45,442 bases of DNA from a virus (taxonomy: Duplodnaviria > Heunggongvirae > Uroviricota > Caudoviricetes). The translations under genes were made by a program, and so were the position numbers. The notes under the pieces are model-generated. The model was given only the letters and a program-made list of their open reading frames with translations, was not told the DNA's origin and ran no database searches. The stretch covers positions 1 to 45,442 of IMG/VR virus record IMGVR_UViG_2534681703_000014; one strand, written 5' to 3'. The stretch's first letter is position 1. Each line of letters starts with the position of its first letter. Of this stretch, positions 185 through 45,442 are shown one piece after another.

Positions 185-222
185 CCTTTCTCCAAAATCT
201 CTCCAAAACGTTTCCCCAAAAC
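185..222. repeat. Reiterated TCTCCAAAA(C/T) motifs next to int; candidate integrase arm-type binding sites
   Basis: Motif TCTCCAAAAC occurs at 4-13 (inside the repeat), 188-197, 199-208 and as TCCCCAAAAC at 213-222; arm-site role is inference. Confidence 0.35.
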
Positions 223-285
223 TAGGCCACGCATTTTACAACACTTTTTTCCTGAGATGGTGACGGATATTCCATATGGTGTTTG

Positions 286-1404
286 TCAAATAACCAACTT
301 AACCCATTCCTGACCTCGAGTATCGTTATAGCGATCGGTGGTTGCCTGGACTTTATGCCCTAGTAATGTTTTTGTATCGATACCCTGTGCACGGTACAGC
401 CGTTCTGATAGAGAGCGTTGTTCATGAAATGTTGGCGGAGTTTTTCCTGCTGGTGGAATTATCCCAGCCAGATCCCGTGCTTTGGCAAAGTAGTCGCTCA
501 GGTTGTCTTTACTCATCGGCTTCGGTTGTTTCTGGTGCCGACTATGGATTAGATATGGACTTAATATTCTGTCTCGGCACCCATCAATAACTTCTTTTAA
601 CGTTATCCCAATGGCATCACAGCGTAGTGTAAGCGGTAACGCCAGACGCATTCCGGTTTTTCCCTGGGTGATATGCAAGTGTTCGTTCCACACATCTGAA
701 AAACGCATGTGGCAAATGTCATCACGGCGCTGACCAGTAACAATCGCAAGAAGCATTGCGTTACGGATAAAGTGTTTTTCAGGCGTTGCATTGTAAATTT
801 TTTGCCAGTCTTCCATGGTGAGCCTGGCTCTGGTTACTTTAGGGATCGGTTTACGGGTAGCCTCCGGAGGATTCCATCCAGGAGGAACTTCCCCTGCATG
901 CTGTGCTTCTTTATAAATATCAACCCATAATCCACGATTTACTCTCGCTGTGCTGACCATGTCTTTATCCAGCCACTCATCCAGTATTAATGCAAAGTCT
1001 CTTACTTCCAGTTCTTTCAATGGGTGGTTTCCCAGACGGGAAACCAGGTATGCAGCCATTCGAGTTTTTTCTTTGTGAGTTGTAGCTGCAATATCTCCAT
1101 TTTTCAGTCGCGCGTCCTGTATTTTCAGATATCGATCAACCCATGCCTTTAATCTGATGCCCCGACGTTTTGTTGCTGACGGACTTTCATCAATTTTGCG
1201 CATGAAATATTCAGCTTCTGCTGCAGCTATTCGCTGATTGGCTGTGGAAGCGATTTTTTCTGCTTTGCCTTTGTCTGTTCCGAGACCGTGAAATTTTCCA
1301 GTCACAGGGTTTTTATACTGGTAGTAAACCCTGCCAGTTCTGCGATCAAACTTTTCGTAAAGACCGGTTACGTCAGTGCTGTTTTTTCGTGGCCTCGGTG
1401 ACAT
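286..1404 (-). CDS. int: Tyrosine-type site-specific integrase (lambda Int family)
   Basis: 372-aa ORF at prophage end, beside the repeat; C-terminal region with R...HxxR...Y-type catalytic layout typical of phage integrases; AAGGAG SD 10 nt upstream of ATG. Confidence 0.9.
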   Translation of the reverse strand: MSPRPRKNSTDVTGLYEKFDRRTGRVYYQYKNPVTGKFHGLGTDKGKAEKIASTANQRIAAAEAEYFMRKIDESPSATKRRGIRLKAWVDRYLKIQDARLKNGDIAATTHKEKTRMAAYLVSRLGNHPLKELEVRDFALILDEWLDKDMVSTARVNRGLWVDIYKEAQHAGEVPPGWNPPEATRKPIPKVTRARLTMEDWQKIYNATPEKHFIRNAMLLAIVTGQRRDDICHMRFSDVWNEHLHITQGKTGMRLALPLTLRCDAIGITLKEVIDGCRDRILSPYLIHSRHQKQPKPMSKDNLSDYFAKARDLAGIIPPAGKTPPTFHEQRSLSERLYRAQGIDTKTLLGHKVQATTDRYNDTRGQEWVKLVI

Positions 1405-1642
1405 GAGTTAAAATCTCCTTCAGTGCATCATCATCGCCAGTATGAATTTCCGGCGCAATTCCCGTTTCACCAGGTCCAACAAATACTGCCCGGCGATCTA
1501 TCAGCCAACGCCCACGAATTTTTTGTGGTCTTGGAACGATGTATCCTAGTTTTCCGTATTTCACCAGGGTAGTGTTTGTTATTGGGAGACTGAACCGTTT
1601 TGGTTTCCACTCGTCGAGCGTTATCAGGTACTGTTCGCTCAT
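1373..1642 (-). CDS. xis: Excisionase (Xis-like)
   Basis: 89-aa ORF immediately upstream of and overlapping int; N-terminus YLITLDEW resembles lambda Xis YLTLQEW; GGAG SD before ATG at 1642. Confidence 0.7.
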   Translation of the reverse strand: MSEQYLITLDEWKPKRFSLPITNTTLVKYGKLGYIVPRPQKIRGRWLIDRRAVFVGPGETGIAPEIHTGDDDALKEILTHVTEATKKQH

Positions 1643-1703
1643 GGCTATCACTCCGGAACGCGCCAGTTGCAGAATACCAACGACAACTGGCGACGGTTGA
1701 ACA

Positions 1704-4175
1704 TTAAAAATCAGCCTGACTCGGGATCAGTTTTTGCCAGATAGCTGAAACGTATTTTGCCTGGTAACGAGCGTCATCAAGTGCATTATGGCGCTCACCT
1801 TCGAATGGGATAGCAGTTCTGGCATCGAAGTCTATGGCTTTCCCCAGCTCAACGATTGTGCGTACATCGCGATCGTTGTAGTAACGCCACGGGCAGGGGA
1901 TCCCCTGCCGCTCGTATGAACGGCGCAAAATAGTGTTGTCGAAGTTGGCTCCATTTCCCCAGACCTGAACAAAAAATTCACCGGAGTTTTCGTCGATAAA
2001 TTCCCGCAATTGTAACAGTGCATCATCTAACGGGATTTCATCGGTCATAATGGCAGATTGCGCTTCGCGTGATTGTTTAAGCCACCATTTAATGGTGTCC
2101 CGATCAATGACTCCGCCAGCAGTTTCCAGATCGATAGTCTTACTAAATTCCGGTCCCATATCTCCGGTTTGCGGATCGAAAAATATTGCACCTATTGAGA
2201 TAATCGGGGCATCGGGATTTTTTCCCATGGTTTCAAGGTCGATCATCAGATGAATCCCCGCTCTGCTGGTGGATGTGAGATTATGATGACCGTTCGCCTT
2301 AATTAAGGGATCTGACGCCTCGCCAGTTTCACTATCGCTGGCATGATGCTGATTGCCGCCAGTGTTCTCCTTGTGCTGATGCGCAGTGCCTTCCATTTCC
2401 TCCGGATCATTTTCCTGAACTTCAGGCTGATTCTCTCCATCGAATATTTCCTGGTATGTTGCGTCACCCATCACCGCACCACAATCAGGGCAGTTGCCGC
2501 CACCGCTCTGACCGCAGGCGGTGCAGATCTTTTCCGGTTCCTGTTGCACTACTGGTTCAGGTTGTTTCGTTTCTGGCTCGTTTTGTTGCGTATTTTGGCT
2601 GTTTTGTTCCGCTTTCTGGTCGTTCTGTTCCGTTTCTTGCTGGTTCTGGTTCGCAGAATCGCGGGTCTGGATCCCCTTAACCCATTTCGGATCATTCGGG
2701 TCGCTAATCCCTTCAACAAATTCACCACGTGATACTGCAAGCAGTTCATCGGCGTCAGGCTGGCTGATATTGGCTGCCTGCATAATTTTGTTTACTTCGT
2801 CAGCGGTAACTTTTACCGGTTCTGGCTGTGCGGTCGTGTCAGATGCACCAGTATTTTGTTGTGAACCTGAGTATGTACCGTTTTTGCGGGCGAAATATTC
2901 TTCTTTCGTGATTTCAGTAGCCCCTGCAGCCAGTGCCTTATCCAGACCAGAAAGTTTGTTTGCGCGACCGTATTTTTCGCCATCCTTGTCGGTGAAGAGG
3001 AAGTAGAACGGCCCCTCACGCTCTACAGATGGTTCGACTTCCACTTTGCATTCGGTTTTTTCGTTGTCCGGAATTGCCGTTTCCACTGCATCAGTTTCTG
3101 GTACTGGCGACGAGAGAGTATCAGTTGCGCTCTGATTTGTTCCTTCATCTTCAAACACGCCCTTTGTAGTCAGGTATTCAGTAATGTATTTGTTCAGTGC
3201 CACAGGATCTTTGTGAATGTCGATCGGACGTCCACGGACAAGGCCAAAAATAGTCTGGCGGTCGTAGCGAAGGGCATCAGGCTGTTTGCGCATCGATGCC
3301 GAGATACGCTTCCAGTCTTCGCGGTCGTTGTCGATAACTTCATTTTTTGCCCAGCGATGGATGCTGCCGTCAATGTTTCCGGCATCCACATCACCAGGCC
3401 AGAGAGCGTAGGCCAGTTCGTCATCCAGTGTTTTCCATGTCTGCTTGTATTCGCGATGAATGACTGCAGTGACAGGGGAGATATTTTCTGCTGAGTTTTC
3501 AGTGTGCTGTCGGTTGACTCTGGCGCGGGCGAGATCAACAGCAGACGTGTATTTTCCGGTTTCCTTGCGTTCACCTTCGCGACGTTTTTTCCAGATGCGC
3601 ATCTCTGCCTGAATTTCGGGCCATTTAGCTCCAGGCTTACATTTATGCTTAACCCACCCGATGGCATGCAACTTAAGTTCTGGATACATGGCGTTAACTT
3701 CTGGCATTTTCATCAACGCTTCAACGATATGTCCGTCGAATGTTGCCATGTCTTCCTGCAACAATTCCTGCGCGCTAATCACCATATCAACGGTGATGTT
3801 TTCACATGTGTCGAACTTAACCATGACAGCGTTCTGTACTTCAGGGGCCAGCTTGTCAAAAGTGACGTTCATCGGATCTGATTCAGTCTCAACCGGGACA
3901 AAGGAAGCAGACTCCTCATCCCAGCGGTTTTCCTGCATATATTCAGCATCCCAGGAATCGAGGGCAGGGCGGGGTATACCGGGTTTATCCTCGCAAACAA
4001 GAAATTTATAAGCGCAGTCCTGAGCAGCCGGATATTGCTCCAGGAATTGCCAGGTAAATTTGGCACGGGCGCGGCGTTCGTCACCGGCTTCAATGGCAGT
4101 GGCTACAGCAACTGCACCTTCTTCCTTTATTGCCTGTTCGTCCGGAATGGCAGCGCAAATAAAGACTTTACTCAT
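1704..4175 (-). CDS. Prophage exonuclease, 823 aa, with C-terminal DnaQ-like (DEDDh) 3'-5' exonuclease domain
   Basis: C-terminal motifs MIDLETMG ... HNALDDA fit the DnaQ/RNase T fold; central Q/N/E-rich low-complexity linker; position matches the exo slot of lambdoid early-left operons. Confidence 0.8.
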   Translation of the reverse strand: MSKVFICAAIPDEQAIKEEGAVAVATAIEAGDERRARAKFTWQFLEQYPAAQDCAYKFLVCEDKPGIPRPALDSWDAEYMQENRWDEESASFVPVETESDPMNVTFDKLAPEVQNAVMVKFDTCENITVDMVISAQELLQEDMATFDGHIVEALMKMPEVNAMYPELKLHAIGWVKHKCKPGAKWPEIQAEMRIWKKRREGERKETGKYTSAVDLARARVNRQHTENSAENISPVTAVIHREYKQTWKTLDDELAYALWPGDVDAGNIDGSIHRWAKNEVIDNDREDWKRISASMRKQPDALRYDRQTIFGLVRGRPIDIHKDPVALNKYITEYLTTKGVFEDEGTNQSATDTLSSPVPETDAVETAIPDNEKTECKVEVEPSVEREGPFYFLFTDKDGEKYGRANKLSGLDKALAAGATEITKEEYFARKNGTYSGSQQNTGASDTTAQPEPVKVTADEVNKIMQAANISQPDADELLAVSRGEFVEGISDPNDPKWVKGIQTRDSANQNQQETEQNDQKAEQNSQNTQQNEPETKQPEPVVQQEPEKICTACGQSGGGNCPDCGAVMGDATYQEIFDGENQPEVQENDPEEMEGTAHQHKENTGGNQHHASDSETGEASDPLIKANGHHNLTSTSRAGIHLMIDLETMGKNPDAPIISIGAIFFDPQTGDMGPEFSKTIDLETAGGVIDRDTIKWWLKQSREAQSAIMTDEIPLDDALLQLREFIDENSGEFFVQVWGNGANFDNTILRRSYERQGIPCPWRYYNDRDVRTIVELGKAIDFDARTAIPFEGERHNALDDARYQAKYVSAIWQKLIPSQADF

Positions 4176-4254
4176 TTTGTTTTACCTCATTACAGATTTA
4201 AGGGTGAACAAATCCCTGCCATTGCTGGCATATAAAAATGAAACTGGATATTAA

Positions 4255-4458
4255 TTACGGCGCTGTTTTTAATCCTGCCGGGATTTCGTTATTATCCATG
4301 CGAATAACTTTCTCGACCAGATAACAGTTACCAGGAATTTTCTGTTCTGCTGCGGCAGCCATACATTCTTTCATTGAACCATATATACCAGTAACCACAT
4401 CAACAGGTTCGCCAGTATTAAGAAAAACAGTCAGAGTGAGGGCAACAGCAGTCTTCAT
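4255..4458 (-). CDS. Hypothetical small early protein (67 aa)
   Basis: ORF in the early-left operon; ATGA start/stop overlap with upstream ORF suggests translational coupling; no recognised domain. Confidence 0.4.
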   Translation of the reverse strand: MKTAVALTLTVFLNTGEPVDVVTGIYGSMKECMAAAAEQKIPGNCYLVEKVIRMDNNEIPAGLKTAP

Positions 4459-4748
4459 TGCCAGCGTCCTTTTTGCATCAGGCGTAAACGGGCCAGCATT
4501 GAAACAATGCATATTTTATTTAATAACTCCCGTTCGTGTTTTCTCTTGTTAATGGCATCTTCAGTAAATACAGGGTTACTGATAGTGACACCAATTTCAA
4601 AACAACCTTCAGACGTATTAACGTTTGGTAATAACGTTTCCATTATCGCGTCCTCAACAATGAATTTTGTGATGCGGTGCCTGGTGCCTCCAGGTGACGT
4701 TAACCAGTTAACAATTAACGCCGGATACAGAGAATCCACCCATAACAC
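4455..4748 (-). CDS. Hypothetical early protein
   Basis: ORF co-oriented with the early-left operon; start codon uncertain. Confidence 0.4.
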   Translation of the reverse strand: MLWVDSLYPALIVNWLTSPGGTRHRITKFIVEDAIMETLLPNVNTSEGCFEIGVTISNPVFTEDAINKRKHERELLNKICIVSMLARLRLMQKGRWQ

Positions 4749-5204
4749 TGTTTTTGGTTTTAACTGTTCCGCGTGCGCTTAGCCGCATTCACCGCATCAC
4801 AAAATTCACTTTAAAAAGGGCGGCAGAGCAGTCACGGAGTAAAACTGATACCGCTAAACGCCACCAGAAAATTGATAACAGAGGGCGTTGCAGCGGGGTT
4901 GTCACTTAAGCGTATGGTCAACCTGACAACCCGGTGTCCTCAACGGGGAAGGAATAACCCCGCCATACTTACCGCCGCGCCATTTCGCGGATTGCCACAA
5001 CCGGAAGCGCACGGTCGACGAAAATTTAACGACAGGCTATCTATGAACCAGCAACCTCGCCGTGCGCTTTCGCGTTATGCTCTGACTTTTCAGAGAAATA
5101 TCCTTTCAGTAAACTGTCAGTACCGGATGCTCACCCGTGTCCGGCGCACGCACTCCACCTCACCCGTGGAGAACTCCTTAAGTACCAACCCTCAGGATGG
5201 TGAA

Positions 5205-5426
5205 ATGACTAGTAAAAATGTAAATATCCAGTTTAACCACGATGTTTCTCCTGCCGGACTTGCGGATGAACTCACTGCTATAAAAACAGCAATTATGCTA
5301 CTTGTTGCTAAGTTGCCAGCAGCATCACAACCATCAGATATTTGTGACTCATTACGTAAGATGAATTCAACAAAATGCAACGAGATGGCATCACTTATTG
5401 AAATAGCTATTGATTTTAATGATTAA
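5205..5426 (+). CDS. Hypothetical small protein (73 aa) encoded opposite to the early-left operon
   Basis: ATG at 5205 with upstream GGATGGTGA; 3' end overlaps by 11 nt the convergent minus-strand gene; the upstream part of the listed 184-aa ORF looks non-coding. Confidence 0.3.
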   Translation: MTSKNVNIQFNHDVSPAGLADELTAIKTAIMLLVAKLPAASQPSDICDSLRKMNSTKCNEMASLIEIAIDFND

Positions 5427-5790
5427 TCGAAATCTCATGGCTAACTGTAACACTCCCGTCTGTGGCGGGATGCTTTAAATCACAGGAGTTAACGCTTTTT
5501 GTTGCAAAGTAATTTTCAAGGGGGTCTATTCGAATCCCTTTCTTTTTCATTAACAAGCCAAACCCCTTATCAATGATGTCCATTAGATCCAGGAAGTATT
5601 TTTTATGTAAATCCTGGTTATCAGAGAGCTGCTTCTCTTCGTACAGACCGATAAAGGCACGACGCACGTTACCGGATATAGTATAGATGGTTTCTTTTTC
5701 TACGGTACTCAGGTCAAGAGTCGCCAGTTGGGAACGAACTATATTCGCTGCCATTTCCTGGAATTGCATTGGTAAATCTTTAAATTCCAT
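5416..5790 (-). CDS. Hypothetical early protein (124 aa)
   Basis: ORF in the early-left operon; no recognised motif. Confidence 0.5.
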   Translation of the reverse strand: MEFKDLPMQFQEMAANIVRSQLATLDLSTVEKETIYTISGNVRRAFIGLYEEKQLSDNQDLHKKYFLDLMDIIDKGFGLLMKKKGIRIDPLENYFATKSVNSCDLKHPATDGSVTVSHEISINH

Positions 5791-8395: not shown

Positions 8396-9436
8396 ATGGC
8401 TAACGCCTGGCTCAGATTATGGCATGACATGCCAAACGATCCTAAGTGGCGAACAATTTCCAGGTTGTCAGGACAGCCAATCGCAACAGTGATGGCTGTG
8501 TATATCCACCTTCTGGTGAGTGCGTCACGAAATGTCACGACATGTCACGGTGTGTCACTACGTGGTCACATTGATGTCACGGCGGAAGATTTAGCAAGTG
8601 CGCTTGATGTGACGGAAGAAGTAATTGATTCAATTTTACAGGCAATGCAGGGACGGGTACTTGATGGAGATTTGATCAGTGGATGGGAAAAACGCCAGGT
8701 ACTGAAAGAGGACAATGGCAACGTTTCACAAACCGCGAAATCCCCGGCAGAGCGCAAGAGAGCGCAGCGCGAGAGGGAAAAATTACGAAAACAGAATGAG
8801 GGGGCGCGCGACGAGTCACGCATCTGTCACGACATGTCACGACGAGTCACGACAGATAAAGATACAGATAAAGAATTAAACCCCACACATAACGCGCGCG
8901 TGCGAGAGAGTGCTCCTGCCAGTGAGGCAAATGGCGTGCCGTTGCAAACAGCGGAACCTGATTACCTGGAAGGCCTGAGCGAACCCATCGGGAAATTTCC
9001 GATGACCGATGGCTGGCATCCGTCGCCGGATTTTCGACGACGGGCTGCGCTGTGGGGCGTGGCTCTTCCTGAGCCGGAATTTACACCAGCTGAACTTTCC
9101 GCCTTCCGGGACTACTGGGCAGCGGAGGGCAAAGTGTTCACGCAGGTTCAGTGGGAGCAGAAATTCGCCCGTCACGTAAATCACGTCAGGGCGCAGGCTA
9201 AACCAGTCAGCAAGGGGGTAAACCATGCAGCAGCACCAGGTGGCACCGCATCACGGGCAGTTCAGGAAATTCGGGCAGCACGTGAGCAGTGGGAACGTGA
9301 AAACGGATTTATCAGCGACGGAAACGGCCTGGAAGCTGTGGGAACTCATGGGGGAGGTTTATTCGAACCGCTGGACCCAGAAGAACGGGGCCGCACCTTC
9401 GAAGCTCTGGATTGCACAGATTGGCGCGATGACTGA
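8396..9436 (+). CDS. Replication initiation protein (YdaU/DUF1376-like N-terminus, DnaT-like C-terminal region); O analogue
   Basis: N-terminus MANAWLRLWHDMPNDPKWRTI; AGAGGTGA SD; internal iteron clusters as in lambda O/ori. Confidence 0.65.
   Translation: MANAWLRLWHDMPNDPKWRTISRLSGQPIATVMAVYIHLLVSASRNVTTCHGVSLRGHIDVTAEDLASALDVTEEVIDSILQAMQGRVLDGDLISGWEKRQVLKEDNGNVSQTAKSPAERKRAQREREKLRKQNEGARDESRICHDMSRRVTTDKDTDKELNPTHNARVRESAPASEANGVPLQTAEPDYLEGLSEPIGKFPMTDGWHPSPDFRRRAALWGVALPEPEFTPAELSAFRDYWAAEGKVFTQVQWEQKFARHVNHVRAQAKPVSKGVNHAAAPGGTASRAVQEIRAAREQWERENGFISDGNGLEAVGTHGGGLFEPLDPEERGRTFEALDCTDWRDD
8522..8853. repeat. Two clusters of (T)GTCACG iterons inside the O-like gene; candidate replication origin
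   Basis: GTCACG at 8524, 8535, 8544 and 8576 with GTCAC variants at 8554 and 8565; second cluster at 8815, 8826, 8836 and 8847; followed by an A/T-rich AGATAAAG-repeat stretch at 8852-8880. Confidence 0.55.
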
Positions 9437-9890
9437 GCAGCAAATCCGACAGGTCTGCCGCCAGTGCATGGACCGCTGCCGGGCGGGTGAAACATGGCCT
9501 CCGGACCTGGCTGAGTTTGTGGCACTGATTTCGGAGAGTGGGGCAAATCCATTTGGTCTGACGGTGGATGCTGTGATGGAGGAGTACCGTCGCTGGCGCA
9601 ATGAGTCCTGGCGATACGACGGAAGCGATAAATACCCATGGACTCAGCCTGTGCTGTATCACATTTGCCTCGAGATGCGTTCAAAGGGGATTGAGCGCCA
9701 GATGACCGAAGGGGAATTAAAACGGCTTGCAGAACGGCAGCTGACGAAATGGGCAAAGCATGTTAGTAACGGCCTGAGCGTTCCGCCAGTCCGGCGACAA
9801 CTGGCGGCACCCAAACGCCCGTCGGGACCAACGCCAATTGAGTTACTGAAACAGGAATATGAACGCCGGAAAGCGGCTGGGTTTGTTTGA
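9225..9890 (+). CDS. Replication protein P-like (helicase loader analogue)
   Basis: C-terminal half has lambda P-like pattern (...YPW...[10 protein letters not shown]...); GGGGG SD before ATG 9225; alternative ATG at 9429 overlaps the O stop. Confidence 0.55.
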
Positions 9891-12366: not shown

Positions 12367-12602
12367 TTTTATGGATCACCTTTCTGATTGATTTCATATT
12401 GGCGAGGTAGCAGGAGTTAAGTAGAATTGCTGCGGGTGCTTGAGGCTATCTGTCTCAGGCATGAACACCAAAAGGCAGATAGAGAAAAGCCCCAGTTAAC
12501 ATTACGCGTCCTGCAAGACGCTTAACATTAATCTGAGGCCATATCTATGCGACACATAGAGATTAGCCTCTTACGGACCGAAAGGTCAAGGAGAAGCAGG
12601 CT

Positions 12603-12758
12603 ATGAAGCAGCGAAAGGCGATGTTAATCGCCCTGATCGTCATCTGTTTAACCGTCATAGTGACGGCACTGGTAACGAGGAAAGACCTCTGCGAGGTACG
12701 AATCCGAACCGGCCAGACGGAGGTCGCTGTCTTCACAGCTTACGAACCTGAGGAGTAA
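12603..12758 (+). CDS. hok: Hok/Gef-family type I toxin (51 aa)
   Basis: Translation MKQRKAMLIALIVICLTVIVTALVTRKDLCEVRIRTGQTEVAVFTAYEPEE aligns by eye with Hok ([52 protein letters not shown]); not in the ORF track (under 60 aa). Confidence 0.7.
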   Translation: MKQRKAMLIALIVICLTVIVTALVTRKDLCEVRIRTGQTEVAVFTAYEPEE

Positions 12759-16766: not shown

Positions 16767-16842
16767 GGCCCTTTAGCTCAGTGGTGAGAGCGAGCGACTC
16801 ATAATCGCCAGGTCGCTGGTTCAAATCCAGCAAGGGCCACCA
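16767..16842 (+). tRNA. tRNA with CAU anticodon, resembling E. coli tRNA-Ile2 (ileX-like); Met cannot be excluded
   Basis: Manual cloverleaf: acceptor GGCCCTT/AAGGGCC, D-arm GCTC..GAGC, anticodon loop CTCATAA, T-arm GCTGG-TTCAAAT-CCAGC, 3' ACCA. Confidence 0.85.
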
Positions 16843-16843
16843 A

Positions 16844-16920
16844 CCGCCACTAGCTCATCAGGAAAGAGCGTCAACCCTTTAAGTTGAGTGTGCGAGGTTC
16901 GAGTCCCCGGTGGCGGTCCA
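16844..16920 (+). tRNA. Atypical tRNA-like gene, apparent anticodon UUU (Lys) with C33 and U73
   Basis: Acceptor CCGCCAC/GTGGCGG, D-arm GCTC..GAGC, anticodon stem TCAAC/GTTGA with loop CCTTTAA, T-loop TTCGAGT with one stem mismatch, 3' TCCA. Confidence 0.5.
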
Positions 16921-16922
16921 GT

Positions 16923-16998
<76 letters not shown>

Positions 16999-17001
16999 TA
17001 T

Positions 17002-17076
<75 letters not shown>

Positions 17077-42432: not shown

Positions 42433-43008
42433 ATGAAAATCAGAGCGGTAAAGGGCATCAGAAACGCCCATTATCTTGAAAATGGTGCGGTTGACTGCGA
42501 GGTGTTATTTGAAGGTGAAACGGAATTCGTCCCGTATACCGCCATGCAGGATGATACCGCACCGACAGGCCAGCGCATCTGGGAAGAGTTGCAGAACGGC
42601 AAATGGGGCGAAATCGCCCCTTTCACTGTCACGCCGGAACTTATCGCCGCGGCGAAGGATGCCAAAAAGCAGGAAATCGAGGCATGGCGCACAGAACAGG
42701 AAGCACTGCCGTTCACCTTTGAATGGAACGGTCGCACCTGGAACGCTGGCCCCGACTCAATGGCCCGTCTTTATCCGGTAGTAATGGCGGCGAAATCTGA
42801 TACGGCACTAACCGCCCTTGCATGGGGTGATGCCGATAATCAACAGGTGAAACTGTCAATGCCGGAACTGGAAGAACTGGCGACAGCAATGGCGCAGGCA
42901 CAGGTCGATCGCAATAACGAGATTTATCAGCGTCAGCGGGAGATGAAGGAAGAACTGAATAATCTTGATGATTTACGCTCAATCCGAGCGTTTGACGTTA
43001 CGCAATAA
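42433..43008 (+). CDS. Putative tail fiber assembly/chaperone protein (atypical, not canonical Tfa)
   Basis: 191-aa ORF immediately after stf; lacks the conserved Tfa C-terminal motif that appears in two fragments farther right. Confidence 0.45.
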   Translation: MKIRAVKGIRNAHYLENGAVDCEVLFEGETEFVPYTAMQDDTAPTGQRIWEELQNGKWGEIAPFTVTPELIAAAKDAKKQEIEAWRTEQEALPFTFEWNGRTWNAGPDSMARLYPVVMAAKSDTALTALAWGDADNQQVKLSMPELEELATAMAQAQVDRNNEIYQRQREMKEELNNLDDLRSIRAFDVTQ

Positions 43009-43825: not shown

Positions 43826-44059
43826 GTGCTGATTGGTTATGTAAGGGTATCAACAAATGACCAGAATACAGACCTGCAACGAAACGCTCTTGTTTGTGCA
43901 GGATGTGAACAAATATTTGAAGATAAATAAAGCGGAACAAGGACAGGCCGACCTGGATTAAAACGTGCTTTAAAGCGCCTTCAAAAAGGTGACGCACTGG
44001 TTGTCTGGAAACTGGACTGACTGGGTCACTGTATGCGGCATCTTGTCGTGCTGGTGGTG
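43826..44059 (+). pseudogene. Serine recombinase DNA invertase (Pin/Gin/Hin family) remnant with two in-frame stops, truncated
   Basis: VLIGYVRVSTNDQNTDLQRNALVCAGCEQIFEDK-stop-SGTRTGRPGLKRALKRLQKGDALVVWKLD-stop-LG..MRHL; in-frame TAA 43928-43930 and TGA 44018-44020; catalytic-Ser N-terminus recognisable. Confidence 0.7.
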
Positions 44060-44152
44060 GAAGCCTGGAAAAAGTATCGGGTGTTGCTGAATCGTGTTGA
44101 TACATCAACTGCACCTGATATTGAGTGGCCTACGAACCCTGTCATGGAGTAA
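44060..44152 (+). pseudogene. Tail fiber assembly protein (Tfa) C-terminal fragment fused in frame to the pin remnant
   Basis: [30 protein letters not shown] matches the conserved Tfa C-terminus as I recall it. Confidence 0.65.
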
Positions 44153-44206
44153 TCATTGGGATTATGCCGCAGCACGTCTTAAGCAAGAACGTGCTGCGGT
44201 TGGATG

Positions 44207-44875
44207 CTATTTTTTCCCTGAAGCGGAAAACATTACTACAGTACCTTGAACCTTGGTTTTAACATTCTCGAAATGCTCTGAGAGTATATGCGTTAAGCCT
44301 TCTTCGGAATCTTTTGTGTTTGAAAAGATGCCTTTCTGATTGTAAATGCGCATCAGTTTTTGACCGAAGCTATTGTGCACAACTCCATCGCCAAGAATTG
44401 TGGCTCCGTATAGAGTTCCATCGTCAGTTAAGGCCTGCGCCGCATTGCGTATTACACAGCTTTTTGTAGATATATTTCCAGGCAGGCAGTGAAGAAGGTA
44501 AAACATGGAAATGGAATCAAATTGACCATGTAACGCCGCGGGATAAGGTTCAAAAACATCATGGCTAATTTTATGTTTAATTTTTGATTCCCCAGCCCTT
44601 GTAGATGCCGCGTTCAGGCTAGCTTCGTTCAAATCCATTAAAGATATCAGACTACTCTCAGGTACGTGAGTAAGGTAAAACCCAGTTCCAACACCAATAT
44701 CCAGATGGTTGTTACCTAAATGTTCCAGAAAGTGTGGAAGAAGGTATTCCTTTGTAGGACATCCCCATGCAAGCCGATTTGATACTCCCAAAACCCACCA
44801 GTCATAAAGCTTTAGGGTAAGTGGTGTGTAAATTTTAGCCCCATCATCTGTGTTTTTTTTCATTAATTTCACCAT
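44207..44875 (-). CDS. Class I SAM-dependent methyltransferase (222 aa), AT-rich cargo gene
   Basis: Motif I DIGVGTGFY (Gly-rich SAM-binding loop); low GC relative to flanking phage DNA. Confidence 0.7.
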   Translation of the reverse strand: MVKLMKKNTDDGAKIYTPLTLKLYDWWVLGVSNRLAWGCPTKEYLLPHFLEHLGNNHLDIGVGTGFYLTHVPESSLISLMDLNEASLNAASTRAGESKIKHKISHDVFEPYPAALHGQFDSISMFYLLHCLPGNISTKSCVIRNAAQALTDDGTLYGATILGDGVVHNSFGQKLMRIYNQKGIFSNTKDSEEGLTHILSEHFENVKTKVQGTVVMFSASGKK

Positions 44876-45045
44876 GTTATAGTTTTGTTTGTGAATTAAA
44901 TCAATTATGGCGATGAATTACAAGGGGTTAAATGCTGCCGCAGCATAGCGATATTGAAATAGCCTAGTATGCTTCGATACAGCAGGAGCCGAATGGCTGG
45001 AAGACCGTCACCACACAGTTCTACACCCAGGAATTCAGTGAGTAT

Positions 45046-45198
45046 ATTGCGCCACTGCAGGATGCTGTAGATCTGGAAATCGCAAAGGAGGAAGAAAGAT
45101 CGTTGCTGGAGGCATGGAATAAATATCGGGTATTGTTGAATCGTGTTGATACATCAACTGCACCTGATATTGAGTGGCCGACTTCACCTGCAGAGTAA
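45046..45198 (+). pseudogene. Second Tfa C-terminal fragment
   Basis: [50 protein letters not shown]; no N-terminal part (in-frame stop at 44965-44967). Confidence 0.6.
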
Positions 45199-45319: not shown

Positions 45320-45442
45320 CTTTCTCCAAAACCAGAACGGAATTGATTGATTTTGATAGGATCTATAACGCCGTTACATTAAACGGCAAAACCACTCAAA
45401 AACAAACTTAATGCATTGAATATAAAGGATTAATCATCTAAT
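45320..45442. repeat. Right copy of perfect 123-bp direct repeat (att-containing)
   Basis: Identical to 1-123. Confidence 0.85.

Follow-up and report, generated by a model that had tools for sequence, protein, structure and literature searches.

What does an isolated, AT-rich methyltransferase gene do at the end of a lambdoid prophage, and is it a working gene or debris among debris? This question is raised by positions 44207-44875 (minus strand) of the virus record IMGVR_UViG_2534681703_000014, whose whole stretch of 45,442 nucleotides (nt) was analysed and is called the window here. An earlier inspection of the letters alone (the sequence-only reading) had taken the 222-amino-acid (aa) open reading frame (ORF) at this place for prophage cargo encoding an S-adenosylmethionine (SAM)-dependent methyltransferase. 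We consider it fairly probable that the gene, ybcY, is a self-contained b-region moron of the lambdoid prophage, encoding a cytoplasmic class I SAM-dependent methyltransferase that most probably acts on a small molecule. Beyond the sequence-only reading, the gene belongs to a known family (ybcY/PHROG 2132), its start is placed four codons downstream, and the tfa relics around it form a direct repeat that bounds a 1.1-kb cassette.

Identity and start codon of the methyltransferase gene

The 222-aa ORF at 44207-44875 (-) was read from the window sequence and contains the glycine-rich motif I LDIGVGTGFY, in which D59, G61, G63 and G65 are invariant across an alignment of 28 sequences. It matched the Pfam families Methyltransf_12, _23, _25 and _11, all above their gathering cut-offs, so that both the frame and the motif pointed out earlier (DIGVGTGFY) are borne out. 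The other marks of a class I methyltransferase were also found, namely an acidic residue closing beta-2, which would bind the SAM ribose, and a seven-stranded alternating beta/alpha sandwich. An AlphaFold (AF2) model (predicted local distance difference test, pLDDT, 89; predicted template-modelling score, pTM, 0.86) consists of a Rossmann methyltransferase core and an N-terminal helical segment.

Judged by its sequence, the gene can be assigned as an intact orthologue of Escherichia coli K-12 ybcY (b0562, DLP12 prophage) within PHROG 2132, whose function label is "unknown". Its DNA is 99% identical to K-12 ybcY and shares the same tfaD'-ybcY-tfaX' layout; the K-12 copy is 2 nt shorter, is annotated as frameshifted, and its cassette is followed by appY and ompT. 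The gene is thus not new: as a RefSeq "class I SAM-dependent methyltransferase" it already carries an annotation in thousands of genomes as well as in phage isolates. The 218-aa protein defined below recurs with 100% identity in another E. coli genome and in a Shigella flexneri genome, and it is 98.6-99.5% identical to those of 14 sequenced phage records, including ev243, 2G7b, the PhiR series, Kati and Turner; the annotated methyltransferases of ev243, 2G7b and PhiR29 share 99.5% protein identity with the window copy. Of 5426 complete E. coli genomes, 3832 (71%) have a sequence of at least 95% identity, in a median of one copy and at most four, placing ybcY among the most widespread uncharacterised prophage passenger genes of E. 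coli. The annotation pattern of a minus-strand methyltransferase gene between two partial tfa genes was likewise found in genomes of enterotoxigenic E. coli (ETEC) and in phages.

The start codon needs revision. The sequence-only reading had noticed that no Shine-Dalgarno (SD) sequence precedes the first ATG, which holds for position 44875; the absence is, however, an artefact, because mechanical ORF calling began four codons early, and GGTGA (44873-44869) stands 5 nt before the second ATG at 44863. M5 is invariant, all 27 aligned homologues begin at this fifth codon, and the PHROG 2132 profile covers the shortened protein end to end (residues 1-218 of 218, E=3e-156). The true start is therefore most likely the second ATG, which would give a coding sequence at 44207-44863 (-) of 218 aa that begins at Met5 of the mechanical ORF and ends with the TAG stop. 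The four extra codons at 44864-44875 (-), reading MVKL, form an extension without conservation in the homologues and are probably a 5' untranslated region carrying GGTGA rather than coding sequence. At the other end, a 45-aa ORF on the plus strand (44125-44262) overlaps the 3' end of the gene; RefSeq labels it "hypothetical protein" or even "nucleocapsid protein", and it is probably a spurious call.

A cassette between tfa remnants at the right end of the prophage

A search for exact matches found that positions 45320-45442 (attR) are a perfect 123-bp direct repeat of positions 1-123 (attL), confirming the right repeat reported next to the gene; because this perfect repeat lies at the window edges, the window comprises one complete lambdoid prophage and nothing else. 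The right junction adjoins potB in near-identical ETEC loci. The early genes lie on the minus strand and the late genes, through J, lom, stf and the chaperone, on the plus strand. The methyltransferase gene, 445 bp away from attR, is on the int/pL strand, opposite to the late operon stf/tfa and on the same strand as the lambda-type integrase gene (286-1404, -; Pfam Arm-DNA-bind_1 and Phage_integrase). In the circularised phage, it would come approximately 850 nt downstream of int, across attP.

The lower GC content noted from the letters was reproduced. The methyltransferase ORF has 40.8% GC (36% at third codon positions) against 51.0% for the whole window, 53.5% for stf and 52.3% for tfa, its neighbours, and just 0.7% of the 669-nt windows in the 45,442-nt sequence are as low; no other stretch of gene size in the window is richer in AT.

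The relics on both sides were also recognised correctly: they are the N-terminus of a Resolvase protein with two stops and two Caudo_TAP C-termini. The pin-type serine invertase pseudogene (43826-44020, +; Pfam Resolvase, E=2e-21) retains the N-terminal ~70 residues with two in-frame stops and is named "recombinase family protein" by RefSeq in the near-identical ETEC loci. The first tfa (Caudo_TAP) 3'-end relic (44055-44152, +) is fused in frame to it, and the second (44980-45198, +) matches positions 77-131 of the 131 of Pfam Caudo_TAP (E=3e-24). Each holds one copy of a 79-nt direct repeat (44055-44133 and 45104-45182, 90% identical), and the gene lies between these two tfa 3' ends. In the stretch 43826-44152 the pin pseudogene is cut at about residue 70 and joined to the last 28 codons of the Caudo_TAP tfa; this fusion is what a deletion has left of a tail-fibre segment that was once invertible. 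The chaperone that serves the prophage's own tail fibre (42433-43008) belongs to DUF4376 and not to Caudo_TAP; both tfa relics are therefore foreign, having come from a different phage lineage via recombination.

The block 44055-45180 is common as a unit to DLP12 (96.7%) and phage ev243 (99.1%). Sharing with a Citrobacter island and a Salmonella plasmid is limited to the ORF and ~60-140 bp of upstream DNA, and the core unit is therefore the promoter together with the gene; the tfa ends would be the form in which this promoter-gene unit travels among E. coli lambdoid phages. The 1.1-kb unit bounded by directly repeated tfa 3' ends would move by means of the recombination homology that these ends supply among lambdoid phages. 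The gene is present in 14 of 71 phage records that have the flanking tfa ends, a presence/absence pattern that is the one expected of a moron. The other features looked for in a moron were an autonomous promoter, for which the hexamers mapped in K-12 are present, the deviating GC content given above, and a terminator, where a strong hairpin was found but no canonical terminator. The placement of a cargo gene at a prophage end, opposite in strand to the late operon, AT-rich, with a predicted promoter of its own and patchily distributed, thus agrees with what had been proposed.

The hairpin, with a 12-bp stem at 44166-44200, lies between the stop of the tfa relic and that of the methyltransferase gene, with a plus-strand T-run 8 nt on; the RNA fold of 44140-44225 has -33.5 kcal/mol (z=-4.2). 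It fails a canonical terminator scan but may end transcription where the tfa relic and the methyltransferase gene converge. An Rfam search found no known RNA family near the gene.

Genomic systematic evolution of ligands by exponential enrichment (SELEX) in K-12 has reported a sigma-70 promoter, TTGATT-17-TATAAC, upstream of ybcY and an H-NS site in the ybcY-tfaX spacer (PMC3946193). The window has the same hexamers (TTGATT at 44904-44899, a 17-nt spacer and TATAAC at 44881-44876), predicting a sigma-70 promoter at 44876-44904 (-). Its -10 hexamer directly abuts the first ATG (44875), which is therefore at or upstream of the transcription start. A consensus scan gave an alternative match, TTAACC-16-CATAAT, at 44931-44904 (-). 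In the lysogen, the gene would have a sigma-70 promoter of its own for transcription, which H-NS probably damps, given that the gene is AT-rich and that the H-NS site was reported in the K-12 spacer. After induction or infection, extra transcription could possibly arrive by pL read-through past int and attP, because the gene is on the int/pL strand; no terminator-like site was found between int and the methyltransferase gene in the joined (circularised) sequence.

Enzyme class and candidate substrates

Against the PDB, the single sequence gave weak Rossmann-core matches to JHAMT and UbiG, and the family profile gave similarly weak ones to CysG, XrdM, NodS, BelI, PmtA and UbiG. The top Foldseek ranks of the model were PmtA (8ys9), JHAMT, PfPMT, SgvM, CysG and CouO, at template-modelling (TM) scores of 0.55-0.67 and 13-21% identity, and none of the viral structures in BFVD was close to it. 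Across 73 family members, the weak NCBIfam matches, all far below cut-off (E of at least 8e-10), fell to BioC (34), UbiE/MenG (22), CpaM (17) and NodS (14). The window protein itself had no NCBIfam match at E<=0.001 and did not reach the equivalog cut-offs of UbiE/COQ5, UbiG or BioC. The common housekeeping family that might have claimed the gene was thus not found: no curated housekeeping family was matched above its cut-off, and the gene is under the constraint described below. The protein can accordingly be regarded as a putative small-molecule or lipid-type methyltransferase of a family with no characterised or solved member. The methyl group would most probably go to an O, C or N atom of a metabolite or xenobiotic that is lipophilic or of the carboxylate type, in the manner of BioC, UbiE, UbiG and NodS.

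Whether there is an active enzyme at all has to be considered first. Decay into a non-functional relic, as seen in the pin and tfa neighbours, would fit the gene's position among pseudogenes, the frameshift of the K-12 copy and the existence of truncated variants such as a 161-aa cluster with 445 members. In the window, however, the frame is intact and encodes the very protein carried by other E. coli and Shigella copies, every SAM-binding motif is conserved, and the gene is retained in isolated, viable phages. The ratio of nonsynonymous to synonymous substitution rates (dN/dS) relative to the window gene was 0.18 for Citrobacter, 0.16 for the Salmonella plasmid, 0.16 for C. braakii, 0.11 for Enterobacter and 0.14 for ev243; the overall range of 0.10-0.18, for relatives compared at 66-99% identity, indicates purifying selection and argues for a functional protein. 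The cluster of the intact 222-aa form has 6589 member sequences, and the SAM-binding residues and many family-specific residues are invariant across the family alignments; the invariant positions include Y24/D25, W37, C39, H129/C130, K138, N186 and D189 (222-aa numbering). Decay is thus a highly unlikely account. A DNA methyltransferase shielding phage DNA from restriction would be nothing strange in itself, orphan enzymes of this kind being common in phages, and one distant family member has a sub-threshold MethyltransfD12 match. The window protein nevertheless has no motif IV of DNA methyltransferases ([DNS]PP[YFW], or PC for C5) anywhere in its 222-aa sequence and no N6_Mtase, N6_N4_Mtase, MethyltransfD12 or DNA_methylase match in the Pfam scan; it also appears, from the model, to have no room left for a target-recognition domain. 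With fold and profile neighbours that are mostly small-molecule or lipid enzymes, the earlier judgement that it is not an obvious DNA methyltransferase stands, and the contrary is extremely improbable. None of the PADLOC defence models was matched at E<=0.01.

Among substrates other than DNA, tRNA or rRNA, whose methylation could alter host or phage translation, seems an unlikely choice, for the matches to RNA enzymes are no better than those to dozens of small-molecule enzymes, the weak matches across the family favour BioC and UbiE, and the window protein, with an isoelectric point of 6.8, has no RNA-binding extension or domain. The isoelectric point was also considered as a clue to nucleic-acid binding and set aside as uninformative, given a range of 4.7-10.4 across the family. 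The best Foldseek match, the Rhodobacter-type PmtA 8ys9 (E=6e-12, TM 0.62-0.66), the appearance of PmtA among the family-profile matches and a choline transporter adjoining the homologue on the Erwinia plasmid pEA29 would suit a phospholipid N-methyltransferase that modifies phosphatidylethanolamine and so changes the envelope of the lysogen; we hold such a specific activity to be quite improbable. Just as doubtful is a methyltransferase acting on a protein of the host or phage. A few family members weakly match PrmC/HemK models and the gene is located in the tail-fibre region, but tfa and pin next to it are dead remnants that do not belong to the prophage's own fibre module with its DUF4376 chaperone, the chromosomal homologues have no phage neighbours, and the NPPY motif of PrmC is absent.

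Several points weigh against the reading that we favour, a self-contained moron for a small-molecule methyltransferase. The substrate is known for no member of the YbcY family; the match to ybcY, fold, start codon, cassette anatomy, distribution and purifying selection are results of the analysis, and the class of substrate and any host benefit are what we infer. The mapped promoter would give a nearly leaderless mRNA without GGTGA, so that either the SD sequence or that promoter may not be used; the upstream match TTAACC-16-CATAAT would give a leader including the SD sequence. For the promoter and the H-NS site we rely on in vitro SELEX with K-12, whose ybcY is a pseudogene, and read-through from pL is a possibility drawn from strand and position.

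Relatives on mobile elements and comparison with known systems

An exhaustive profile search retrieved 1757 cluster representatives at E<=1e-3, 428 of them at E<=1e-30, from many bacterial phyla and including some fungal members. In distant taxa the gene mostly stands alone, with a GC content like that of its surroundings (median difference -0.023). When all ORFs of 76 diverse loci were clustered, no conserved neighbour emerged, and a Pfam scan of 132 immediate neighbours gave generic families alone (SDR, LysR, ABC, MCP, and alpha/beta-hydrolase in 4 of 132) and no operon partner; the context therefore gives no functional inference. An esterase partner, as in a methyl-ester cycle, was considered and rejected, as esterase or hydrolase genes, though found close to it in ev243, Erwinia and Enterobacter, are not enriched. 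Domain fusions were likewise discounted: the longer members (P0215, P0183 and others) have no recognisable extra Pfam domain, and several are probably mis-called starts or eukaryotic gene models.

Stand-alone chromosomal homologues occur in Enterobacter hormaechei (66% identity), Salmonella (56%), Yersinia and Erwinia. The Salmonella copy (loci L006/L007, 7001-7663) lies between a PMT_2 glycosyltransferase gene and cybB, near sseJ, and from its position next to cybB we take it to be STM1638. According to two papers, STM1638 is immediately upstream of the small RNA gene rydC; RydC activates cfa, which encodes another SAM-dependent lipid methyltransferase, and its proximity to the Salmonella homologue is probably coincidental. 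In the literature, ybcY or STM1638 turns up among microarray probes or deleted genes, or serves as a landmark (ybcY beside ompT). The sole mutant test found concerned Hha toxicity in K-12, where ybcY is a pseudogene, and saw no effect of the mutation.

All of the nearest relatives have a low GC content (39-41%) and are mobile: the Citrobacter one is in a purB-adjacent island with dinI, those of Salmonella are on a ccdAB plasmid and an IS-rich contig, and that of C. braakii is in a sodC/dinI/sopA prophage remnant. Further relatives lie on plasmids, and close ones are found on medically important mobile elements, the K. pneumoniae hypervirulence plasmid among them. On the Rhodococcus equi virulence plasmid pREAT701 (9100-9714), a 31%-identical member in the vap island is divergent from a LysR-family regulator gene, which we take to be virR. 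This member has a degenerate motif I (HLEVGARSAW, the GxGxG loop being lost) and LHR in place of the LHC motif, and may be a pseudo-enzyme. On Erwinia amylovora pEA29, the homologue stands beside a serine recombinase gene as well as the choline transporter gene. In the plasmid collection, 761 plasmids carry a homologue, 603 of these records being Klebsiella pneumoniae, and many of those listed have two copies. The one plasmid examined, pSC7-vir (K. pneumoniae, 237 kb, IncFIB), has a homologue at 8995-9648, 65% identical over its full length, divergent from rmpADC and beside iroBCDN and peg-344, and a second copy from 18082. The Klebsiella homologue has been listed by two papers as a marker associated with liver abscess or hypervirulence in genomic epidemiology, without functional work (PMC5126061, PMC9372168).

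The recurrence of homologues on virulence-linked elements is suggestive but is equally explained by hitch-hiking of AT-rich DNA. With the ompT-carrying lambdoid phages, the Klebsiella plasmid beside rmpA, the R. equi vap island, pEA29 and the Salmonella locus near sseJ as its grounds, it is conceivable, though improbable, that the YbcY family is a recurrent accessory adaptation enzyme of virulence-linked mobile elements that methylates a host- or competitor-derived small molecule (an antimicrobial, a signal or a lipid). If so, the target would be inactivated or altered and the lysogen would gain a fitness advantage in the host. A variant, in which methylation of a small-molecule immune signal serves as phage counter-defence, is less likely. 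Identification of the substrate would annotate thousands of genomes and would separate a lysogenic-conversion or virulence-accessory enzyme from a hitch-hiker.

Elsewhere in the window, the early-left region contains the DicF antisense small RNA, a cell-division inhibitor RNA (4818-4869, -; Rfam RF00039, 68.6 bits). A sok antitoxin RNA (12434-12605, +; Rfam RF01794, 106.7 bits) points to a hok/sok-type toxin-antitoxin locus in the prophage, and four phage-borne tRNA genes lie at 16767-17076 (+): Met-CAT, Lys-TTT, Thr-TGT and Gly-TCC.

BioC, UbiE/MenG, UbiG and NodS share with YbcY the Rossmann core, motif I and the acidic beta-2 residue. We liken the N-terminal helical "YD...W" lid segment of YbcY to that of UbiE, a presumed correspondence from our own reading of the sequences. 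In contrast to these enzymes, which it matches with scores far below cut-offs and at no more than 21% identity, YbcY lacks biosynthetic operon partners and has invariant motifs of its own (YDxxVL..SN...W.C, LHCLPG, GATILG and YNxKGIF.N). The K. pneumoniae rmpA-adjacent methyltransferase (BAH65943.1 / WP_011251259.1) is likewise an AT-rich passenger of a mobile element and is 65% identical to the window protein; it is, however, carried by a plasmid, where it diverges from rmpADC, and not by a phage, and its tie to virulence is one of linkage.

K-12 ybcY is the same gene in the same tfa'-ybcY-tfa' cassette with the same promoter hexamers, but it is a pseudogene at the ompT locus, whereas the window copy is intact and has attR of a complete prophage close by, with potB adjoining to judge by the near-identical ETEC loci. 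In ev243, an isolated temperate phage, the order int-ompT-hydrolase-tfa'-methyltransferase runs along one strand at 185-5669, the hydrolase being a 494-aa alpha/beta-fold "lactone hydrolase"; the K-12 ybcY-appY-ompT neighbourhood looks like this b-region cargo, carried here by a live phage. For a lambdoid phage, a moron in the b-region with recombination scars on either side is an ordinary setting, and there is nothing unusual in the window in this respect. In lambda, the b-region genes ea47, ea31 and ea59 lie between tfa and att on the int/pL strand, and lom and bor have autonomous promoters. The window methyltransferase gene has the same map position and, like the ea genes, the same strand, and like lom and bor it would have an autonomous promoter; it differs from all of these in encoding an unrelated protein and in lying within a cassette bounded by duplicated tfa 3' ends.

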